The notes under the pieces are model-generated. The model saw only the letters and a list, made by a program, of their open reading frames with translations. It did not search any database and was not told the origin of the DNA. This document shows positions 1 to 37,333 of a stretch of DNA of 37,333 nucleotides, one piece after another. This stretch comes from a virus. Its lineage: Duplodnaviria > Heunggongvirae > Uroviricota > Caudoviricetes. The translations under genes and the position numbers were made by a program. Position 1 is the first letter of the stretch. Every line of letters begins with the position of its first letter. The stretch lies in IMG/VR virus record IMGVR_UViG_2563366859_000002, one strand, 5' to 3'.

Positions 1-91
1 GAGTCTTGAGTCTTGAGTCTTGAGTCTTGAGTCTTGAGTCTTGAGTCTTGAGTCTTGAGTCTTGAGTCTTGAGTCTTGAGTCTTGAGTCTT
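1..91 (-). repeat. Tandem heptanucleotide repeat GAGTCTT (AAGACTC on the coding strand), 13 complete copies, probably continuing past the left edge
   Basis: Perfect 7-bp periodicity from position 1 to 91, directly abutting an ATG on the minus strand at 94-96. Confidence 0.95.
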
Positions 92-96
92 GACAT
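1..96 (-). CDS. neuO: 5' end of polysialic acid O-acetyltransferase NeuO (partial, runs off the left edge); repeats encode RLKTQDS heptapeptides
   Basis: Reverse complement reads ATG TCA AGA CTC AAG ACT C...; position downstream of an endosialidase-type tailspike matches the known CUS-3 arrangement. Confidence 0.65.
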   Translation of the reverse strand, partial: MSRLKTQDSRLKTQDSRLKTQDSRLKTQDSRL

Positions 97-249
97 ATTA
101 GTATCCTACGTTATTTTACCACTAGTTACTTTTCTTGTCATTAAAAAGCATTTAAATTTTTATATTTAATTTCGTTGACGTCAATGTTTTTTGCCAATGT
201 ACTTACTTCTTTATGTGAGCAGTTCATATTTTTGACGCCAACGAAACAT
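97..249 (-). promoter_or_regulatory. AT-rich region between tailspike stop and neuO start, presumed neuO promoter/leader
   Basis: About 150 bp of AT-rich non-coding sequence immediately upstream of the neuO ATG. Confidence 0.3.
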
Positions 250-3195
250 TTAGTGCTTCCCTTCTATTAAGTCTAACCTAGCTTTTATTCTTTCTATTTC
301 TCTGCGCTGCCATGCCGCCTCGATATAGAATAAGAGATCAGGTCTGACCCCCCATCTAGATCCTGCTGGCGTTATTTCAACGCGCTCAATGATGTCTTCC
401 ATTACCATCACTGGATTATCATCCTCATCAACAATGATGCTCCCGTCATTATCAGTCAGCGGCATTTCCCTTTGGCCAGTAATGACGTCATCATATACTG
501 CGGGATAATCGTCATAGCAAAGAAAGGCATAGCGGCATGTTGTGCTTTCTTCTTCCATGAGTCCGTGAGAAATAAGAACATCACGAAGTTGCTGCGCGAT
601 TACACCATGATGTATCCTCGCCCCTTCTTCCCCCTTTATAGCGACAGCGTTCAGCCATTTATAAGCGATATACCTGACGTCACCCCAGGCATCCAGCAAT
701 TCTTCGTCAGGAGAGACCGGCTCTGTCTTTAATGTTCCGTCACTGGTAACCACAGGATTGGAGCCAAGATAAACTGTCGAGAACCTGTTTCCCGGACCAC
801 CAAGAGCATTTACATTATCAAGATAAGGTTTAACATCTCCGTTCTCAAAAAGATGTTCGAGTGCGTTATATACCGCGCGACGTGGAGTACTGCTTCCGGA
901 ACCATGCAACGTTATCATTGCACCATCTGCTGAAGACGTTGTTTCACCGCCGCTAACGATTAATCTCTGAGCGGTAACATCATCAGACGGTACTTTCTTC
1001 GCAATAATGGCGTAATTACCCTCAAGTTTGACTTCCGCGCGAACTTGTCCTGATGTACCTGCATGGACAGTCAGTGACTGGACGGCAACATCATCTGTGA
1101 AATCAACGGGTACAGGAACCGTCCTCACGCCTGACGTCGACATAAAAGTAGGAAGCGTTCTGTTAGGAGTGGCTCCGTAGACAAAATCCCTTGAAACAAA
1201 TTCTTCCTGTTTAATTTTCACCCTGAAACAATACAAATCAGCCGGGTGACCATCGTGAACATAAGGATATTTTCTGTTGTTATCCCCTATGCTCCATGGG
1301 TTTAGAAAGTCTTCCCCACCGAAAATGTAGTACAGCCAGTTGTCTTTGATACAAACTGAACCAACACCAACCGCAGAGTTAACTATTCCGCCCTGATAAA
1401 TCTGATCAGTAACATTAACCCACTCTACATTATCCAGACTCCACTCATTGACGTTAACTCTGGTCATAAATGTTCTTGGATAATTTCCTGCATAACGGTT
1501 ATCAGGTTCTCCTCCTTCCCACTCACCAAATGCGCGCTCACTGCCAAAAATAATCAGCTCATCGCCAACTTTGGCAAAAGGAAGGTTTGAGTGATGAACA
1601 TTATTTGGGAAGCGAAGAGAATTCCATGATGTACCTAAATCAGAGCTTCTGTGCAATGAACTACCGGGTTGAGTACTTAATGTCCCCCTGGTCGTCAGAT
1701 ACAGAATGCCATCATAATATTTTACACATGGCTCAGATGCATTCGCCTCATATTCTGCAGGTATGCGTCTGCGAACAAAGCTACCAGGAGAACCGAAAGC
1801 ATCAGAGAAATAGAGTATCCCAAGCTCGCGTGGGCCAATATCACCATTATGGTAGCCAACAGCAAAACTGTTATCGCTAATCGTCGCAAAACTGTGAATC
1901 TCAGTAACAGGAGTGCTTCCGTCAACAAAAGAAGGAATAGTTCCAAGACTGGTTTTTCTCCATGGTGACGAGTGAAATGATGTACCAAAACTCCAGTATC
2001 TACCCTCGTTATTCTGATCCACATCCTGGGTATTTTGCGTCGTAACTGTAAAAGTATTTTTATCAATAACAGTAGTCACCGTCATATTCCCGGTAACACC
2101 TGTAACACCAGAGTTTGAGAAGTTGACAAAATCACCAGCAAATAATCCGTGATCAGTAATGCGAATATAAGCGACTTGCTGATTTGCTGCTTTCGTTATA
2201 CCACCATAAACGCGAAGGCTGCGACTCATTGGGCGATCCCACAACTCTGCAACCTGCAGTTTATTTCCGCTCACGGTCCGCGTCTCAATTACAGCAAAAA
2301 GGCGATTTCTGACAACCCCCATACTCATGCAGTGATAGTTAACTGTGGGATAGTTTTCATGTAAATCTGTAAGCCATTCCGGCGTTGTCCAGGTCTTCCC
2401 GTCATCTCCTGAGCGAACCCATGCAACATGGAGGTTATTTACACCATGGCGGTCTCCAGCCATAAAAGGCGCATAGATGACATTGTCATATACAAACGTT
2501 TTATCCTGCGTCCAGGCGTTGTACCACGGTGTATCTGTAATTTTAAATAACTCTCCCTGGATAAAATCTTCAGAAGCATAAAAAAGAGGCTGACCCGGTA
2601 TTCTCTCAAATAAAAAACGAGCATTTTTAAATCGACTGACATCTGGAAGAGTTGATACTTTAAAAGTAAGCCCTCGCCCATCTATCTTTTCACCACCTGT
2701 TGCAACAGAAAGTAATTCTGATAGAGCTGATGTATCATCATGAACACCATCACCAATAGCCCCCCAACCTCTTACATCATAACTGTCTCTCCATCTTGCT
2801 ATCTGAAGTTTTGGGTATTTATTCGCTCCATCTGGGTCTTCTAATTGCTGCCGTAACTGATCAGGATCATACTTCAGCACATTCGGAAAATAGAACTGCT
2901 GTGTACCATACGCATCATAAACAGCCATAGAATGGCCTTGCACGGTTACGAACTTGGCAATCTGTCCGTTATATACCGGATATCCAGCGGCGTTAATGAT
3001 GATTGGTTGCGAAACAGGAACGTGAGAACCATCTTCGTTCTCAACATAGACCTGAATCTGGTTTTCAGGATTTACCGGGTCAGTGTCAATTTTACCGATA
3101 TAAATTTTGCCATTAGCTACGGCTTTAAAAGAACGCGCCATAGTGAAGAGTTGCGAAGGCATACTCACTACAACATTGGCTGTAATGTCTGTCAT
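250..3195 (-). CDS. Tailspike, 981 aa: P22 gp9-like head-binding N-domain, sialidase-like domain with two Asp-boxes (endosialidase-like), C-terminal chaperone-like domain
   Basis: N-terminus [11 protein letters not shown]...KYDPDQ matches P22 gp9; Asp-boxes SGDDGKTW (2389-2412) and SSDLGTSW (1624-1647); S-D at aa 818-819 before a conserved C-terminal domain. Confidence 0.85.
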
Positions 3196-3254
3196 TTAAT
3201 TTGCTCCAGATACAAGGAATCGCCGCAGCATGGCTACGGTTGGCATTTATTACA

Positions 3255-3267
3255 TACCGAAACGGTA
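3255..3267. promoter_or_regulatory. Palindrome TACCGAAACGGTA between divergent tailspike and mnt-like genes; candidate operator
   Basis: Perfect 5-bp arms around AAA in the 132-bp divergent intergenic region. Confidence 0.3.
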
Positions 3268-3327
3268 CGATTGTTGATTTGTACAGTAGGTTTTACGATG
3301 CCATTCCACCCATTTGGTGAGGCATTG

Positions 3328-3585
3328 ATGATGTACAGCAAATACGATGAGGCGCAGTTCCACTTGAGGCTTACACACGAGTTGCACGCTAAGATTAAGC
3401 AGCGTGCAAAAATGAATAACAGGTCTATCAATTCCGAAATTGTGGCTACGATGGAAGAATCACTCTCCAAACCATCACCTGTAAGCGGGTATCGTGATGA
3501 AGAAGAGAGGCTGGCCTCATTAATCTCGGAACGAGTAAAAGAAGTTGCGGCTGAAATTCTAAGGAAAGAAAAAACCCGCGATTAA
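3328..3585 (+). CDS. mnt: Mnt-like ribbon-helix-helix repressor, 85 aa
   Basis: RHH motif ...NNRSINSEIV... and C-terminus SKPSPVSGYRDEEERLA resemble P22 Mnt; SD GGTGAGG before ATGATG. Confidence 0.7.
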   Translation: MMYSKYDEAQFHLRLTHELHAKIKQRAKMNNRSINSEIVATMEESLSKPSPVSGYRDEEERLASLISERVKEVAAEILRKEKTRD

Positions 3586-3600
3586 GCGGGTTTAGTTTTC
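3565..3600. terminator. Rho-independent terminator between convergent mnt-like and antirepressor genes, strongest on the minus strand
   Basis: Stem AACCCGC/GCGGGTT with a long U-run on the minus-strand side and a shorter one on the plus side. Confidence 0.6.
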
Positions 3601-3611
3601 ATTATAAAATG

Positions 3612-4340
3612 TTACGCCACATTTGAGCCATGTAGCAGGTGTTGTAGTGCTTTAACGCCTTCAGAATTGTAACGGAACGCCTCTACCTGTTTGCTGGAAT
3701 GCGCCGATTTATCCAGGAAGAACTTCCCGTACTGCTCAGTTTTGAGGTTGTTTGCGTTAGCAATGCGACCAATCTTGTTGGCCGTTACTCCAAGCTGCTC
3801 TGCAACCTCCCCTGCTGAGTAGTAATGCTCTTCTATTGCCGGAAGAGGTATTGCATTAAAACCAACAAGCGGGTTGATTATACTTGCTGCCGCTGTCTGC
3901 TTTGCCTCAGGCGCAAGATTTGGCATCAGATCGAACAGATTGGTAACAGCTTCAACCGTCATTTTCAATGTTCGCGCTTGACGATACTCAACAAGTCCAC
4001 TCGCTGATTTACCGCTTTTAATGTGCGCTTCTTGCATACTTTCAAGTTGGTCTACCAGTGAGCGGCGAACGGCTTTTGACTCGCGAGCGGCAACTCGCAA
4101 TGCTTGCTTGATTGACATCTCAATGATAACCATCGAAGTTTTGTTCGCTTTTTGCACTACACTTTTTGTGTAGTGCTCTCCATCCAATTCATCTTCAATT
4201 TTCTCGATGAATTTGTTATTACGAACCTCCGGCTCACCGCACTGTCTACGAGCCTGATTTACCATCTCAAGCAGGCGCTGGCTGTCAATGGTTTTATCCG
4301 TGACAACGGATCCGATGTTTGCTACATTCTTAAAAGTCAT
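3612..4340 (-). CDS. Antirepressor-type regulatory protein, about 242 aa, KilA-C-like C-terminal domain
   Basis: Internal start MTFKNVANIG with SD AAGGAA; C-terminal YYSAGEVAEQLGV...NKIGRIA motif typical of phage Ant/KilAC proteins. Confidence 0.6.
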   Translation of the reverse strand: MTFKNVANIGSVVTDKTIDSQRLLEMVNQARRQCGEPEVRNNKFIEKIEDELDGEHYTKSVVQKANKTSMVIIEMSIKQALRVAARESKAVRRSLVDQLESMQEAHIKSGKSASGLVEYRQARTLKMTVEAVTNLFDLMPNLAPEAKQTAAASIINPLVGFNAIPLPAIEEHYYSAGEVAEQLGVTANKIGRIANANNLKTEQYGKFFLDKSAHSSKQVEAFRYNSEGVKALQHLLHGSNVA

Positions 4341-4410
4341 TAGGCATTCCTTATGTGGTAGTAAGGGTGTGACATAGGCCGCCAGCAGCACACTGGCGGT
4401 TTTCTTTTTG
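4335..4410 (+). ncRNA. Candidate sar-like antisense RNA (about 75 nt) covering the RBS and start of the antirepressor gene
   Basis: Plus-strand promoter-like GTGACA-17bp-TACATT (4300-4328) followed by a strong plus-strand-only terminator at 4379-4410, antisense to the gene start at 4340. Confidence 0.4.
4379..4410 (+). terminator. Rho-independent terminator on the plus strand inside the minus-strand ant region
   Basis: Stem GCCGCCAG/CTGGCGG(T), 7-nt loop, then TTTTCTTTTT; no U-run on the minus-strand reading. Confidence 0.6.
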
Positions 4411-4428
4411 CGCCGTCCGGCGCACCAA

Positions 4429-5055
4429 TCAATGAATCCATTCCTCGCCGCGCAGTTTTGCCAGCATTGGCTGAGCGTTCTTTACGACAAAATTGTTGGT
4501 ATCAAGATTCTTCATTTCACGAAGAAGTGATTTCTTGGTTTCTTCTGACATATAGCGAGTCTCATATGCGATATCGTAAATCCTTCCTGAAAGCTCAGAA
4601 CAAATTTGCTTCATTCCTGGGTAGATGTGTTTGCACATTTGTTGACTCTTCTCCATCCACAATTGTAAGTAGCAGAGATTAACCAGTTCTTCGTCAGTAA
4701 ACTGTTTTGCAATCGGTGAGCATTCTGCCTGCCGATCCAAAATATCCAGCACCCAGCGGCGGAACTCTTTGGCTACCGGAGTGCGAGCAAACATCGCGAT
4801 TAGGTGGGCACCGCGTAGTGAGAAAACTCGCACTTTTTTGCGATAATTTCCTGAGGTACTCACTTCGAGTACCTGAGTCATTCCGGCGCTAAACTCATCG
4901 CTATACTTGTTATAAATCATTGTTACTGCACGACTATTTGCGTATTTAAGTGCAGATGCAATATTAGATGATGTAAACCAAACACCATGCATATCACGGG
5001 TGGGCACCAACTCAACTCCGTGGAAGTTGTAATCTGATTTTGCTACAATATTCAT
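4429..5055 (-). CDS. Bro-N-like domain protein, about 208 aa, possible second antirepressor
   Basis: Internal start MNIVAKSDYNFHGVELV with SD AAGGAA; N-terminal region resembles Bro-N/Ant N-domains (GxWF...A.AL.Y.N). Track ORF N-extension rejected. Confidence 0.5.
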   Translation of the reverse strand: MNIVAKSDYNFHGVELVPTRDMHGVWFTSSNIASALKYANSRAVTMIYNKYSDEFSAGMTQVLEVSTSGNYRKKVRVFSLRGAHLIAMFARTPVAKEFRRWVLDILDRQAECSPIAKQFTDEELVNLCYLQLWMEKSQQMCKHIYPGMKQICSELSGRIYDIAYETRYMSEETKKSLLREMKNLDTNNFVVKNAQPMLAKLRGEEWIH

Positions 5056-5128
5056 GTTAGTTTCCTTGCATACGGTTACTGACATAGAGGCCCGGTTTGT
5101 GTTCGCGCACTGCCGGGCTTCACTATTT

Positions 5129-5296
5129 TTATGTCCTAGCATTCTTCTCTCCAATCAGTCCGTACACTTTTCTCAATTGATAAATAAGTTCCGTGTTGAA
5201 CTGTCGACACTCTTTTTCTCCATTTCTTTCAATCGCCTTCCTTACATCCTCTGGGAAACGAACCTTGCGTTGATACATGTCTTTTGCTTTTTCCAT
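5129..5296 (-). CDS. arc: Arc-like ribbon-helix-helix repressor, 55 aa (absent from the ORF track because under 60 aa)
   Basis: MEKAKDMYQRKVRFPEDVRKAIERNGEKECRQFNTELIYQL...; SD AAGGAG 5 nt before ATG; position first in the ant operon as in P22. Confidence 0.6.
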   Translation of the reverse strand: MEKAKDMYQRKVRFPEDVRKAIERNGEKECRQFNTELIYQLRKVYGLIGEKNART

Positions 5297-5313
5297 CTCC
5301 ACTCCTTAAATAG

Positions 5314-5376
5314 CCCCACTGTGGGGCAATTGAAATTGTCACACCGTGCGTCATTGAAGTCAACCCCACCGTGGGG
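5314..5376. promoter_or_regulatory. Two 13-bp palindromic operators (CCCCACTGTGGGG at 5314-5326; CCCCACCGTGGGG at 5364-5376) in back-to-back divergent promoters
   Basis: Plus promoter TTGAAG(5354-5359)-17bp-CATAAT(5377-5382) has an operator in the spacer; minus promoter TTGACT-17bp-GACAAT has an operator just after +1. Confidence 0.55.
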
Positions 5377-5419
5377 CATAATTTACTTATTGTGAATTTT
5401 TCCTGTTTGGACTAATGGT

Positions 5420-5794
5420 ATGAGTAGAGAAGACCCTCAACTTCGGATTAGGCTTCCTGTTGAATTAAAAAAAATAATTGAAGCGTCATCAAAACAAAAT
5501 AATCGTTCTATGAATGCTGAGATTGTCACTCTGCTTGAGTTGGCGATTCGTGTTTGTCGTGATTTTGGGCCGGAGGATGGTCCTATCGTTCAGCAGTTTA
5601 AAGAACAACTAGATGCGATAAACAGAAAATATGATAAAATCGAGCATGAAAAACTTATACCTCAACTTTTAGAAATCATAGAAAAACAGAAAAAACAAGT
5701 AGATAAACTTATTAGCATGGTTGAAAGATCAATTCCTCTTTCAGAGGAATATAAGCAGAAATATCTTGGTGATGACAACAAAAAACCCACCTGA
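5420..5794 (+). CDS. Mnt/Arc-family RHH repressor with extended coiled-coil C-terminus, 124 aa
   Basis: N-terminus MSREDPQLRIRLPVELKK...NNRSMNAEIV parallels P22 Mnt; divergent from arc, as mnt is in P22. Confidence 0.65.
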   Translation: MSREDPQLRIRLPVELKKIIEASSKQNNRSMNAEIVTLLELAIRVCRDFGPEDGPIVQQFKEQLDAINRKYDKIEHEKLIPQLLEIIEKQKKQVDKLISMVERSIPLSEEYKQKYLGDDNKKPT

Positions 5795-5819
5795 CGGTGG
5801 GTTAATTTTTGCCTTTTTT
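5784..5819 (+). terminator. Rho-independent terminator after the 124-aa RHH gene
   Basis: Stem ACCCACC/GGTGGGT followed by a T-rich tract. Confidence 0.6.
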
Positions 5820-5892
5820 GGACCATATTGACTACTCATAAAATGAGATCAATATTTAATCGCCCAATAACGGGTGTATGTTGAGGTATATC

Positions 5893-6072
5893 ATGGCGAA
5901 AAAACCAGGTGAAAACACAGGAAAAAACGGCGGAATATACCAAGAAGTTGGCCCACGCGGCGGTAAGAAAGACAATTTTGCCACCGTCAAGGACAACGAA
6001 AGGCTTCCGCCAACAACAAAGCCAGGTCATGGCTGGGTATTGGATAAGCGAACTCCAGACAGCAAAAAGTAA
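5893..6072 (+). CDS. Small YjzC-like protein, 59 aa
   Basis: MAKKPGENTGKNGGIYQEVGPRGG...; SD GAGGT; own promoter-like TTGACT-17bp-AATATT (5828-5856) with CTCAT/ATGAG inverted repeat in the spacer. Confidence 0.55.
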   Translation: MAKKPGENTGKNGGIYQEVGPRGGKKDNFATVKDNERLPPTTKPGHGWVLDKRTPDSKK

Positions 6073-6085
6073 TAATCAAGCCGGG

Positions 6086-6451
6086 TCACTCCGGCTTTTT
6101 GATATGTCGCTCGCAGAACTCAACAAGCCTGCTCATTAAGTAGCAGTAAGTCTCATTGGCTCTTCCTGGTTCAACATCAACACCGACCCTTGAGCAGATA
6201 TCGAATGCCATGTGAGCGCACTCATGGGCAATAGTAGATAGTTTGCCATTGAACACGCCTATCACATGCAAAACACCATTCTCGCTGCTCATTGTATGAG
6301 ACGCTCCGTTGGCATCCGAGTCCTGCACGTCCACACCAAGTTTTTGATGCAGGCGTTGCCATTCTGGAAAGTCTCTACAAAACACAATTGTACCGCTCTC
6401 AAAGAGCGGAACGAGCATCTTTGGTACGTTTCCAATGTTAACTTTTTTCAT
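6086..6451 (-). CDS. Hypothetical 121-aa protein with HExxH...E motif (possible small zinc metallopeptidase)
   Basis: Motif IAHECAHMAFD with Glu residues 14-20 aa downstream; the antisense plus-strand reading looks non-proteinaceous. Confidence 0.5.
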   Translation of the reverse strand: MKKVNIGNVPKMLVPLFESGTIVFCRDFPEWQRLHQKLGVDVQDSDANGASHTMSSENGVLHVIGVFNGKLSTIAHECAHMAFDICSRVGVDVEPGRANETYCYLMSRLVEFCERHIKKPE

Positions 6452-6481
6452 GGTATCCTGCTCAAAACTAAGGAGGTTGGT

Positions 6482-6709
6482 GTGAAGCGATGGTTCCTCA
6501 TAATTACTGTTTTCGCGATCATTTACGCTATTTTCCCTGCATTAAAAGCACCAATGCAAATAATTTCACTAGCAATAATTGCAATTGGTGCTTTCATTAC
6601 AGTATCCGTACTTGTGTTTAAGGTTTTAAAGTTTTTAGTTTGGCTATCAAAAGATGATGGATGCAAAGTTCATCAAGAAAAAGAAGGCAAAATAACCAAA
6701 GTTGACTAA
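6482..6709 (+). CDS. Small two-helix membrane protein, about 75 aa, GTG start
   Basis: Strong SD AAGGAGG 5 nt before GTG; two hydrophobic segments (FLIITVFAIIYAIF and IISLAIIAIGAFITVSVLVF). Start uncertain. Confidence 0.45.
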   Translation: MKRWFLIITVFAIIYAIFPALKAPMQIISLAIIAIGAFITVSVLVFKVLKFLVWLSKDDGCKVHQEKEGKITKVD

Positions 6710-8829
6710 CTGTCACTAGCGAGCCATGTAATAATCCCCGTGCGGGCAATGGTTTTTGCTTCATCTGTTGATAGGGTTTTCTCCCATCTCTTAAATGCCC
6801 CAGATTGCATCAGTTTCCTTTCTATTGCGCGTCTCACTTCTGCTCTGTCTACTGGTGCGTTTTGCAGGCGAAATAGCATTGATTTAAACTCAGGAGAAGA
6901 CAGTAGAGCATCAGCAGCCTTTATCCTGCTTGTTTTCCCTGACATCAATGCGGACGTTATCACCCCTGTTGCACCTACACCAGGAAGACCAGATAAGCTT
7001 GTAATACCTTCCGCCGCAGCAGCTTTTGAGGCTATTCCATAAATTTTTGCTAGACTACCCTTTTCCTTCAGAAAGTTATTAACTTGCTGATCCACAAGGC
7101 TGCTAGCATACTGCTTACCAGTATTGAGTCTATTCATAGCCTTGGCTGCTTGATAAATCGTATCAAGGCGCTTTGATGCATCTGTGCCAATAGCATCACG
7201 GAGAGTCTTCATATTGGCCCCATTGCGTGATATTCCGTTATACCATTTTACAAATCCATCAACCCCTAATTGCTGACCTGGTGATTTAGCATAGCTGGTA
7301 AATGCTTTATTCATTGAGGTGAGCACAACTTCCTGCCGCATATCCTTTGGAATTGACTTCATTAATTGCCTAAAGTCACCACCGTTTCCTTTTGCCATAT
7401 TAACAACGGCACTTTCAACTTTTGGAATTGCTGATTGCTGAAGTTTTCTACCCAAAACGGTTACGGCATCATCTTCAATGGATTTTCGTTTTTTTACCAA
7501 CTCCTTACCAAGCGTCCATAACTCCCCTGCGCCATATTTTTCTGCGACAGCCTGTTGGTCATCTGTTATAGCTGCATATAACTTTTTAAGAACACCTGTT
7601 TCTTCATCCTTGAATGGGCCAGAGCCTTTGCCAATAGCTTGCCCAACCTGCTTTCTGGCGAGATCTAAACGCCCATACGTTGGCAAGGTGTTTGGATCAA
7701 GTCGGTTCAATGTCCGCTTCATTATTGGAGATAATTCATCAATTCCACCTATGTCATCAGCAAAATCCTCTAAAAAATTCAATGTATTGGTTGCCTCAAT
7801 ACGGTCTCTTACTGGAACCTTTTCGGCAATTTTGTTGTAGATGTTATCTGACTGATTTTGTAATGATGAAATGGTTTTATCAAAATTATCTGCAAGCCTG
7901 TCAGAAACCAGTTGCTTATCAAGGTTTCCCCCAAATGAAGTTATCATTTCATCAGCTTTTCTTCCTAATTCAGTAATAAAGCGCTTATGCGCCTCACTAA
8001 TCTCTGTTCCAGGAAGACTTGCCACTGCATTATCAAGAGCCCTGACAGCAGGATTATTAGAGATCATTCCTGGAGTGGCATAATTTTCCAGTTCTAGCTC
8101 ACGGATGGCATTTATCGCGTTAAAATCAGGATTAACTTCATCGGCGAAACCTTGAATAGCTCGTTGCCCGCCAATAAATTTATTATCCATTGCGCCAGCA
8201 GCTTTCTTTAACGTTGCTTTAGATGATTTACTCCCCATCCCTACGGATGAGCGATAAATATCCCCGGCACTATTTTTAATTTTTCCTGCAATCTTCCCAA
8301 GCGCTGGACCAACAATCTCGGCTACAGGGCCAGCCACAGCGCCAATAGCAGCGCCGGAAGCAACATCGCTATTTGTTCCATTGGCTACAATAGCCCCTTC
8401 TCCAGCACCAAGCCCTGCGGCGGCAGCCAGCCTTGCCGCCCCTTTCGGAACCTGAGAAATAATCCCACCACCACTAACAAATGGCGCGGCTTGTCCAACA
8501 AACTCACCAACATCTTGTGCGGTTGATGGTTTTGCCGCTAACTTCTGCTGTAGAGACTGAATTGCGGCTTGCTCTTCTGGTGTCATATCCTGAAACAGGC
8601 CAACACCTTTACCAACATCCATCAATCCACTGAGAACGCCATACATAAAACGGTCGAAGCCGTTAGCATTATTAACAACATTTTCCTGTCTGGAATTTTC
8701 CTCTGGTGAAACCAAAGGAGATTGCTGCTGTTCTGGTTGGGCATCAAGCACAAAGCCATCAGGAAGCTGTGAGTTATCAGGCTGATTATCGAGAACAAAG
8801 CCTTCGGGTAAACCTACATCGGTTGCCAT
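6706..8829 (-). CDS. Ejection/internal virion protein, P22 gp16-like, 707 aa
   Basis: Position last in the ejection-protein trio before the accessory region; large Ala/Gly-rich protein. Confidence 0.65.
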
Positions 8830-10157
8830 TGTCCGTTCCTGTAAATGAGTTTCTGACCAGTTTTAGGGTTCGTTGCCGTCGCGCCTTCTGATATCCCACT
8901 TGGCGCAGCTTTTGTCTGCCCATTACCACCTTGTGGTGTAGGCTGCGCTGGGACATCGTCAAATAGCTTGGCCTTCCTTCTCCCTAAGCTTTTTTTCAGC
9001 CCCTGAGGAATAGTATCTCCATACGTATCCAGATATTCGTCTACCTGCTGGTTAAACTGCTGCCCCATAGCGTTGGCGTTAATTTTTGCTGCGTTAACAA
9101 TGTTATCCCTCGCTTCCTGTGACAAGCCATTCCCTGCATTAAGCTGGTCTACATATCCTTTTATCTGCCCCCATATGCCATCAGAGCGCATAACCTGAAC
9201 CTGTTCACCTTCGCGAACAACTGACTGAGGGTCGAGAGACTTCATGTAATTAAAGATAATCCCAAGTTGGGCAGCGCCAGTATTTACCTTGCTAAGGGCT
9301 TGCAGAGAGTTTGCCGCCGCTCTGACAGAGTTATAATTTTTACCAAAATTGGTAATGTCAGAATTTAATCCCTTAATTAATTCTGCTGACGGCTTACCTT
9401 TTTGCCCCAGCTCCATTAGCTTCAATCCCATCTCATCTGAGTGCATTTGTGCCCGCTGAGCCCTGTCTAGTTGAGCGTTCTGGATATTTGCCCATCCTCT
9501 CTCGTTCTCCATGTCAGCCTGACGGATGCTTTCATCCAATCGCCCTTTCTCAATTTCACGACCAGCTATCTTGTCCTGAACAGCAAACGCCTTTTCTGGC
9601 CCAAGTGCACCGAGAGACATAGTAGTCAGCATGTGTGATAGCTGCTCTGGATTCTGAATACCTGTCTGAATCATCCAGTCAGCATTCGCCCCCACGCGAT
9701 TTAACCTGTCCTTGTTATCAGTAATGAATTTACTGTAGGCTTCCGGTCCCTGAGAAAGAGCGACGTTAGCCCTCATGGCTAAATCGCCCATATCGTTGCG
9801 TTGCTGCTCATTAAGACCGGAAAATGCCTGTTGTGCCTGTGCAACAAACGCTGGATTTTCCTGGGCAAACTTAAATAGTCCCGATGGATCACCAGAAGCC
9901 CATGCATCAGCGTGAACCTTATTGAACGCACTAATCGCTTTCTGTTGCTGTTCCTGCTTATAAATATCAGCAACTCCAGCCAGACCACGTAATGCGGTCA
10001 GACCAACGTTATTTGCACCTGATCGAGCCAGTTCATTGTTTTCGCGGATCAGACCAAGCGTTGCGTTAATGTCGCTTGCCTTTGGCGCATTCTCATTTTG
10101 CGTACCGATGCCAGCCAGAAAACCACCAGAATTAATACCCTGTTGCCACGTAGCCAT
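8814..10157 (-). CDS. Ejection protein, P22 gp20-like, 447 aa
   Basis: Synteny between gp7-like and gp16-like genes; size and composition. Confidence 0.65.
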
Positions 10158-28313: not shown

Positions 28314-29260
28314 GCAATCCCCCTGTCTGCAAACTTCCCTTCCCGAACTCCCGTTAACGAATCTTCCCTCAGCAGGTAATCAAAATCTGCCGTCCAGCCC
28401 GTGTCGTTGTCTCCGAAGTAAAACGGCTTGGCCTGATGCACAAACGCCCTGACATACGCTCTGAAACCGTCCACGTTTGGCGTTTTCAGTTGCGGGATGA
28501 TTTTCTTCAGGCGGCGTTTGCGTTTCTCGTTGACCGCAACAGCGTGTGGAAGCCTGTCACCGACTTCGGTGTTGTAGGCGTTCAGGAAGGATTCGTAGTC
28601 GATTCGTTCTGCCTTGCGACGTTCAGGTTTAACCTGCCCATCGCCTCCCCCATTGGGGGGTAGGGGGGTATTATTTATATTCTTGTTAATACCTTCTTGT
28701 TCATGATGTGCGGTTGTTTGTGCGGCTTCATGTGCGCTTTCATGTGCGGCATGTACGCTGAAAGCCGCGCCATTACTGGCTTCATCATGTGCGGCATCAT
28801 GTGCGGTTGTTTGTGCGGCTTCATGTGCGGGGGAATTGTCCATTTTTTGAGCGTATTCATGGTAATTTGTGATGGTGATCACACGACCTTTTTGCTTCTC
28901 TCCATCAATGGAGATCATCCCCTCTTTCACAAAAACCTGAAGCATCCGCTCAACCTGATCACGGCTTGCCGGCTTGCCATGCCTGTCGCATAACTGAAGA
29001 CCTAAATCAGCTGCTGTCACAACCAGTTGACCGGGTTGCAGATGCCATTCATGACCTTTGAAATTCGCTTTGTATGGCTTTCTGGCGGCATTCAGGAGAA
29101 GGTTTTCCCACAGGGTGCGAAGATAAACATCTTTCGCCCATGACTGTTTCAGAATGCTCCGGTACAACGGAATGTAACCAGTTTTCTGGTTCTCCATCCT
29201 GTTGCTCCTGCGCTCGTGTGCGGCGCTGAAATCGTAGATTTTTGCTGTATTGCTCATCAC
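28310..29260 (-). CDS. O: Replication initiator O-like protein, 316 aa, with internal origin
   Basis: N-terminus [11 protein letters not shown] resembles lambda O; iterons lie inside the coding sequence. Confidence 0.8.
28650..28835. repeat. Origin iterons: about 8 copies of a TGTGCG(G/C) core in two roughly 45-bp direct repeats, flanked by a G-rich tract and an AT-rich segment
   Basis: Direct repeats visible at 28701-28736 and 28783-28829; AT-rich 28669-28695. Confidence 0.75.
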
Positions 29261-37090: not shown

Positions 37091-37132
37091 GCCTGATTTG
37101 CAGGTTCGATTCCCTATTTGGAGATAGCACTC

Positions 37133-37333
37133 ATGCAACACGAACTACAACCTGATTCACTGGTTGATTTGAAATTCATCATGGCCGATACTGGCTTCGG
37201 TAAAACCTTCATCTATGACCGGATTAAGTCCGGAGACCTGCCTAAAGCCAAAGTTATCCACGGGCGAGCAAGATGGTTATATCGTGACCATTGTGAATTC
37301 AAAAATAAACTCTTAAGCCGCGCCAATGGGTAA
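37133..37333 (+). CDS. xis: Excisionase / AlpA-family DNA-binding protein, about 66 aa
   Basis: Motif TGFGKTFIYDRIKSGDLPKAKVIHGRARW typical of AlpA/Xis winged-helix proteins; last gene of the PL operon; stop at the window end. Confidence 0.6.
   Translation: MQHELQPDSLVDLKFIMADTGFGKTFIYDRIKSGDLPKAKVIHGRARWLYRDHCEFKNKLLSRANG

Follow-up and report, generated by a model that had tools for sequence, protein, structure and literature searches.

The window, by which we mean the whole stretch of 37,333 nucleotides analysed here, opens inside a tandem repeat. Positions 1-91 consist of 13 perfect GAGTCTT units, followed by GA (92-93) and CAT (94-96), and on the minus strand this reads as ATG-TC-(AAGACTC)13, continuing off the left edge. 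The translation of positions 96..1 on that strand is MS(RLKTQDS)4RL, three units making up one RLKTQDS heptad (Table 1). Tandem Repeats Finder (TRF) describes the array with a period of 7, 13.3 copies, 100% matches, and a score of 186. A probe of three units has 11 in-register matches at 1-91 and none elsewhere in the 37.3-kb window, and it had no match in 100 dinucleotide-preserving shuffles; the tract is therefore far beyond chance, and its origin as chance or low-complexity noise is ruled out by the shuffles. Since the tract reaches the window edge, 13 units is a lower bound. Both the sequence and TRF bear out the 13 perfect units up to the edge reported in the initial annotation, which rightly placed the total copy number outside the view, the tract being cut there. 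Its statement that the repeats start immediately after the ATG needs correction, as two bases, TC (93..92), intervene. It is also worth mentioning that the dinucleotide after the ATG is polymorphic, being TC (Ser) in the window, Ec15103, and AREA_486, and TT (TTA, Leu) in CUS-3, ATCC 11775, IHE3034, and UM146; the TC variant prolongs the repeat by a partial unit.

Table 1. Coordinates of the features at the left end of the window and of the right prophage end.
Feature	Position	Strand	Basis
AAGACTC array, 5' part of the neuO poly-psi variable-number tandem repeat	1..91	-	sequence, TRF, CUS-3 annotation
TC spacer from start codon to array; codon 2 reads TCA (Ser)	92..93	-	sequence
neuO start codon ATG (CAT on the + strand)	94..96	-	same position as the acetyltransferase start annotated in Ec15103
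AT-rich intergenic region, 153 nt, from the tailspike stop codon to the neuO start	97..249	-	99.9% conserved in E. coli K1-type genomes
Putative Shine-Dalgarno-like AGGA, 7 nt upstream of the ATG	104..107	-	reading of the sequence
Endosialidase tailspike gene, 981 aa	250..3195	-	domain matches; siaK1 in CUS-3; directly upstream of neuO
Prophage attR core	37098..37113	+	mapped from CUS-3 40192-40207

In the region upstream of the start codon, a scan of window positions 1-600 gave, by consensus only, two sigma-70-like minus-strand matches, one at 184..156 and the other at 141..113, and found no terminator-like site after the tailspike gene. From the match at 141..113 transcription would start inside or beside the Shine-Dalgarno-like motif, and no neuO promoter is claimed. 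The 981-aa tailspike combines a P22-type Head_binding domain, End_beta_propel, a beta-barrel, End_tail_spike, and the C-terminal chaperone Peptidase_S74. The flank formed by positions 94-1300 is 99.8-99.9% identical to its counterpart in 182 complete E. coli chromosomes.

Since the attR core is located at 37098-37113, the window spans the element from the neuO tract to the right end of the prophage, and is essentially a P22-like prophage minus only the neuO body and int. This prophage is a mosaic, and identity to CUS-3 of about 99% is confined to its tailspike-neuO end. The CUS-3-matching blocks outside that end show about 91-98% identity, and the structural genes beyond position 9558 (DNA-transfer and head) are nearest to those of phage HK620, with approximately 96.6% identity. 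No match to CUS-3 was found in window 3241-9558, which contains two antirepressor-like ORFs on the minus strand (3612-4391 and 4429-5154), an Arc-like ORF on the plus strand (5420-5794), and two ORFs of unknown function; taken together, these suggest an immI-type module of another kind. Among complete E. coli genomes, the best match extends over 75% of window 94-25000. As positions 1-3240 are about 99% CUS-3 while the other modules differ, the endosialidase and the phase-variable neuO may travel among P22-like phages as one recently exchanged module, with the window as an undescribed mosaic carrier, a proposal to which we would give even odds.

Two further observations concern the rest of the prophage. 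Just past the attR core lies a 66-aa excisionase-like ORF (phrog_66; 37133-37333), the stop codon of which is the window end; it is presumably similar to TorI, which belongs to the KplE1/CPS-53 element at argW, a likeness that, on our assumption, would point to tandem elements at the argW tRNA site. Inside the homologue of replication gene O, at 28640-28830, there is a near-palindrome rich in G, CCCCCATTGGGGGGTAGGGGGG, besides several 12-nt repeats of the CATCATGTGCGG and TGTGCGGCTTCA types. By comparison with other lambdoid phages, these probably represent iterons of the origin together with a repetitive linker.

The left end of the window can be identified by comparison with CUS-3. Positions 1-3240 are 99.0% identical to positions 2277-5516 of CP000711.1, where the tract is annotated as 'neuO poly(psi) domain' with 19 copies of the heptanucleotide AAGACTC, and the match to the NeuO repeat tract of CUS-3 that had been proposed from the sequence is thereby borne out. 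An AAGACTC array beginning two nucleotides after the ATG is the published neuO arrangement (PMC3046976). Every defining feature that can be tested within the window is present in it, and the others are present in relatives with near-identical flanks; the tract is the neuO contingency locus itself and not a look-alike. With a probability of roughly 95%, we read it as the 5' end of the lysogenic-conversion gene neuO in an E. coli K1 prophage that is CUS-3-like (P22-like), and as a simple-sequence contingency locus, the gene body being deduced from relatives.

As the neuO body lies to the left of the window edge, the gene was examined in relatives with the same flank. In Ec15103 (L002) the ATG and TC are followed by 30 units and a frame of 214 codons, giving a 286-aa protein designated in RefSeq as an acetyltransferase. 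This protein contains the Pfam Hexapep domain and matches PDB 3jqy, 'polysialic acid O-acetyltransferase', with an E value of 2.5e-160, its next structural match being the meningococcal OatWY (PDB 2wlc, E 7e-31). The acetyltransferase frame anticipated downstream of the repeats in the initial annotation is thus encoded in relatives sharing the flank, and among the matches listed, all those extending through the ATG into the tract have the neuO body behind it. In this prophage the tract would be expected to run into GTTTTCCGTTGATG... and a hexapeptide acyltransferase frame of roughly 214 codons.

The proposed mechanism is that of slipped-strand mispairing, in which the identical 7-nt units would misalign during replication and units would be gained or lost, according to the literature mostly one at a time. 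As 7 is no multiple of 3, the reading frame moves with every unit gained or lost. The phase condition is that ATG + 2 nt + 7n + 1 nt, i.e. 6 + 7n, be divisible by 3, and hence that n be divisible by 3; such alleles would yield full-length NeuO, and any other n would lead to an early stop. This rule, already put forward for the tract, was confirmed on relatives' alleles, all of them real: n=57 and n=30 (Ec15103) give 349 and 286 aa from the ATG, and n=26, n=19 (CUS-3), n=13, and n=5 give 80, 49, 35, and 31 aa, respectively. The stop lies 3 codons past the tract if n mod 3 = 1 and 17 codons past it if n mod 3 = 2. In ON alleles every three units would add one RLKTQDS heptad to the N-terminal poly-psi extension of the enzyme, which according to the literature is a hexapeptide-repeat, acetyl-CoA-dependent O-acetyltransferase acting at O7/O9 of the polysialic acid capsule. 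NeuO is a trimeric left-handed beta-helix, and its substrate is alpha-2,8 polysialic acid with 14 or more residues (PMC3046976).

The copy number was surveyed with a query of 800 nt from both flanks, with the repeats removed, searched against 5,426 complete E. coli genomes; the halves of the query align separately, and the extra length between them is the tract length. Both flanks were present in 156 genomes, and the copy-number figures come from the 86 distinct records listed among these. The insert is an exact multiple of 7 in 84 of the 86 records. These 84 complete genomes, whose flanks share 99.5% identity or more, show 36 different values of n between 5 and 57, the median being 20.5. The tract is thus variable in copy number and not invariant, as befits the switch proposed for it. 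In frame are 28 of the 84 listed genomes (33.3%), the proportion expected with no net bias. Of six loci fetched as a check, five had pure tracts of the predicted length, and for MS7163 the survey method gave n=21, equal to the value obtained by long-read, Sanger, and fragment analysis (PMC13001214). Earlier surveys reported 3-53 repeats in 64 complete genomes, with 65.6% OFF (PMC13001214), and before that a range of 2-93 copies (PMC3046976).

Differences in n are also found between very close genomes. In ATCC 11775 n is 30 (ON), and in JCM 20135 it is 26 (OFF); the flanks are the same in both and the chromosomes differ by 99 bp in length, from which we infer a single strain. Two poultry isolates of series 729 likewise differ, with n=19 in one and n=14 in the other. 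In MS7163, fragment analysis assigned 93% to n=21, 1.9% to n=20, and 5.4% to n=22 (PMC13001214). Within-clone switching rests on this published analysis together with the near-identical genomes differing in n. Among the out-of-frame alleles of the 84 listed genomes, n mod 3 is 2 in 36 and 1 in 20, a skew that may mean nothing, relatedness being uncorrected and the duplicated assembly F11 being included. Two tracts have lengths other than multiples of 7: in UM146 (L008, NC_017632.1) the tract is 139 nt long, with one 6-nt unit, AAGGTT, after unit 9, and in 729_270514_x_12 (NZ_CP160121.1) it is 225 nt long. They may reflect sequencing errors, or else genuine interruptions that would make the tract more stable.

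The treatment of out-of-frame neuO in RefSeq deserves a separate remark. In the alleles L005, L007, L008, and L009, RefSeq calls only a 111-aa 'acyltransferase' from an internal ATG, the product being WP_011478229.1 in three of them and WP_244423851.1 in UM146, and flags neither a pseudogene nor a phase-variable gene. As this 111-aa fragment is unmarked, OFF alleles of neuO are hidden in protein catalogues. Recognition of the locus helps annotation, since OFF genomes receive the fragment and short-read assemblies break in the tract.

Of the alternatives to a contingency switch, graded control survives best. According to it, the main role of the tract would lie in the length of the poly-psi extension tuning the enzyme, or in an effect of tract length or DsdC binding on transcription. 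The extension is unfolded, and catalytic efficiency rises linearly as the heptads increase in number; however, NeuO without any heptad is still active (PMC3046976). Transcription of neuO is dependent on DsdC; this regulator binds for the most part within the gene and downstream of it and controls the mRNA level, and the authors raise the speculation that slippage could be affected (PMC9659370). ON alleles in the 84 listed genomes span n=9 to 57, but two thirds of these genomes are out of frame and unable to make the enzyme, close to the published share of OFF genomes. Because so many genomes carry out-of-frame alleles, frame switching dominates the phenotype. Graded control is compatible with the contingency switch, and as the main role of the tract it is rather unlikely.

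Far less probable is that a real tract here heads a disrupted or missing neuO, through an IS insertion, a deletion, or the decay of the prophage to a remnant, and is a relic and not a working switch. The gene body is beyond the window edge, and dead alleles do exist, since in AREA_R504 (L041, NZ_CP123315.1 1196800-1199800) an IS3-family element splits the neuO tract into 18 + 12 units. The two parts lie at 1066-1191 and 2505-2588 of L041, and the IS3 transposase has a programmed frameshift; the tract of the sister strain AREA_504 is uninterrupted, with n=29. Read from the sequence, the insertion would be a permanent knock-out of a phase-variable gene, with the tract as the insertion target. 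Dead alleles are, however, rare among the matches listed. Of 194 genomes, 38 match the tailspike flank in part and lack a full match to neuO, but these partial matches end at query position 334 or earlier, before the ATG; matches that extend through the ATG into the tract, as stated above for those listed, go on into the neuO body. In the window itself the promoter region, the Shine-Dalgarno-like motif, the ATG, and the 13 perfect units are all intact. We consider a relic very unlikely, and a working contingency locus remains the preferred reading.

The position of the window start raises the question of the assembly. The 40-nt flank beside the ATG is contained in 16 IMG/VR contigs, and seven of them (L026, L029, L034, L035, L036, L037, L040) stop inside the tract, with 2-13 units followed by at most 5 bases. 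L035 is a complete contig that opens with the tract, and L040, the closest IMG/VR contig, with 0 mismatches over the first 3.1 kb, breaks off in the tract with 2 units. Assemblies break systematically in the tract, and for this reason copy numbers from short-read contigs, including the 13 of the window, are not to be trusted. That the repeat run is nothing but a contig-end artefact, as its place at the window edge and the contigs ending there might suggest, is hardly conceivable, since closed chromosomes from long reads and the CUS-3 reference alike carry the same repeats at the same place and in the same register, only the count being unreliable. An assembly artefact was accordingly rejected as an explanation of the tract and accepted as the likely cause of its count: the window start and the number 13 were probably set by an assembly break, and 13 probably says nothing about phase.

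O-acetylation by NeuO alters the antigenicity of the K1 capsule in E. coli causing neonatal meningitis and urosepsis, as well as resistance to K1-specific phages, neutrophils, and serum (PMC3046976, PMC13001214, PMC9659370). It protects against K1 phage and neutrophils, but at the price of higher serum sensitivity (PMC13001214). The biology of the neuO switch has been settled knowledge since 2005, and a survey of copy numbers across complete genomes is already available in a 2026 paper. The feature is thus already known, and the initial annotation interpreted it correctly; the tract adds nothing beyond the published record (PMC3046976; PMC13001214).

Three known systems can be set beside the locus. 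Apart from NeuO itself, the solved homologue nearest to the NeuO catalytic domain is OatWY of N. meningitidis W-135/Y, which shares its left-handed beta-helix fold but is without the heptanucleotide tract and the poly-psi extension, and is not prophage-borne (PMC3046976). The neuO tract of CUS-3 agrees with that of the window in the unit AAGACTC, the start two nucleotides after the ATG, the heptad RLKTQDS, and the endosialidase tailspike (siaK1) as upstream neighbour, and differs from it in codon 2, which is TTA (Leu) versus TCA (Ser), and in copy number, 19 versus at least 13. The poly-psi tract of CUS-3 neuO was reportedly described by Deszo et al. in PNAS in 2005 and by King et al. in J Bacteriol in 2007. 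The contingency loci of Haemophilus influenzae and Neisseria meningitidis, with tetranucleotide or homopolymer tracts in lic, opa, siaD, and others, also have intragenic repeats with a unit not divisible by three, slippage of which toggles a surface-modifying function. The neuO tract resembles them in being an intragenic repeat whose slippage toggles translation. Unlike them, it has a 7-nt unit, is borne by a temperate phage, and its repeats are translated into an N-terminal extension that tunes the activity of the enzyme (PMC3046976).
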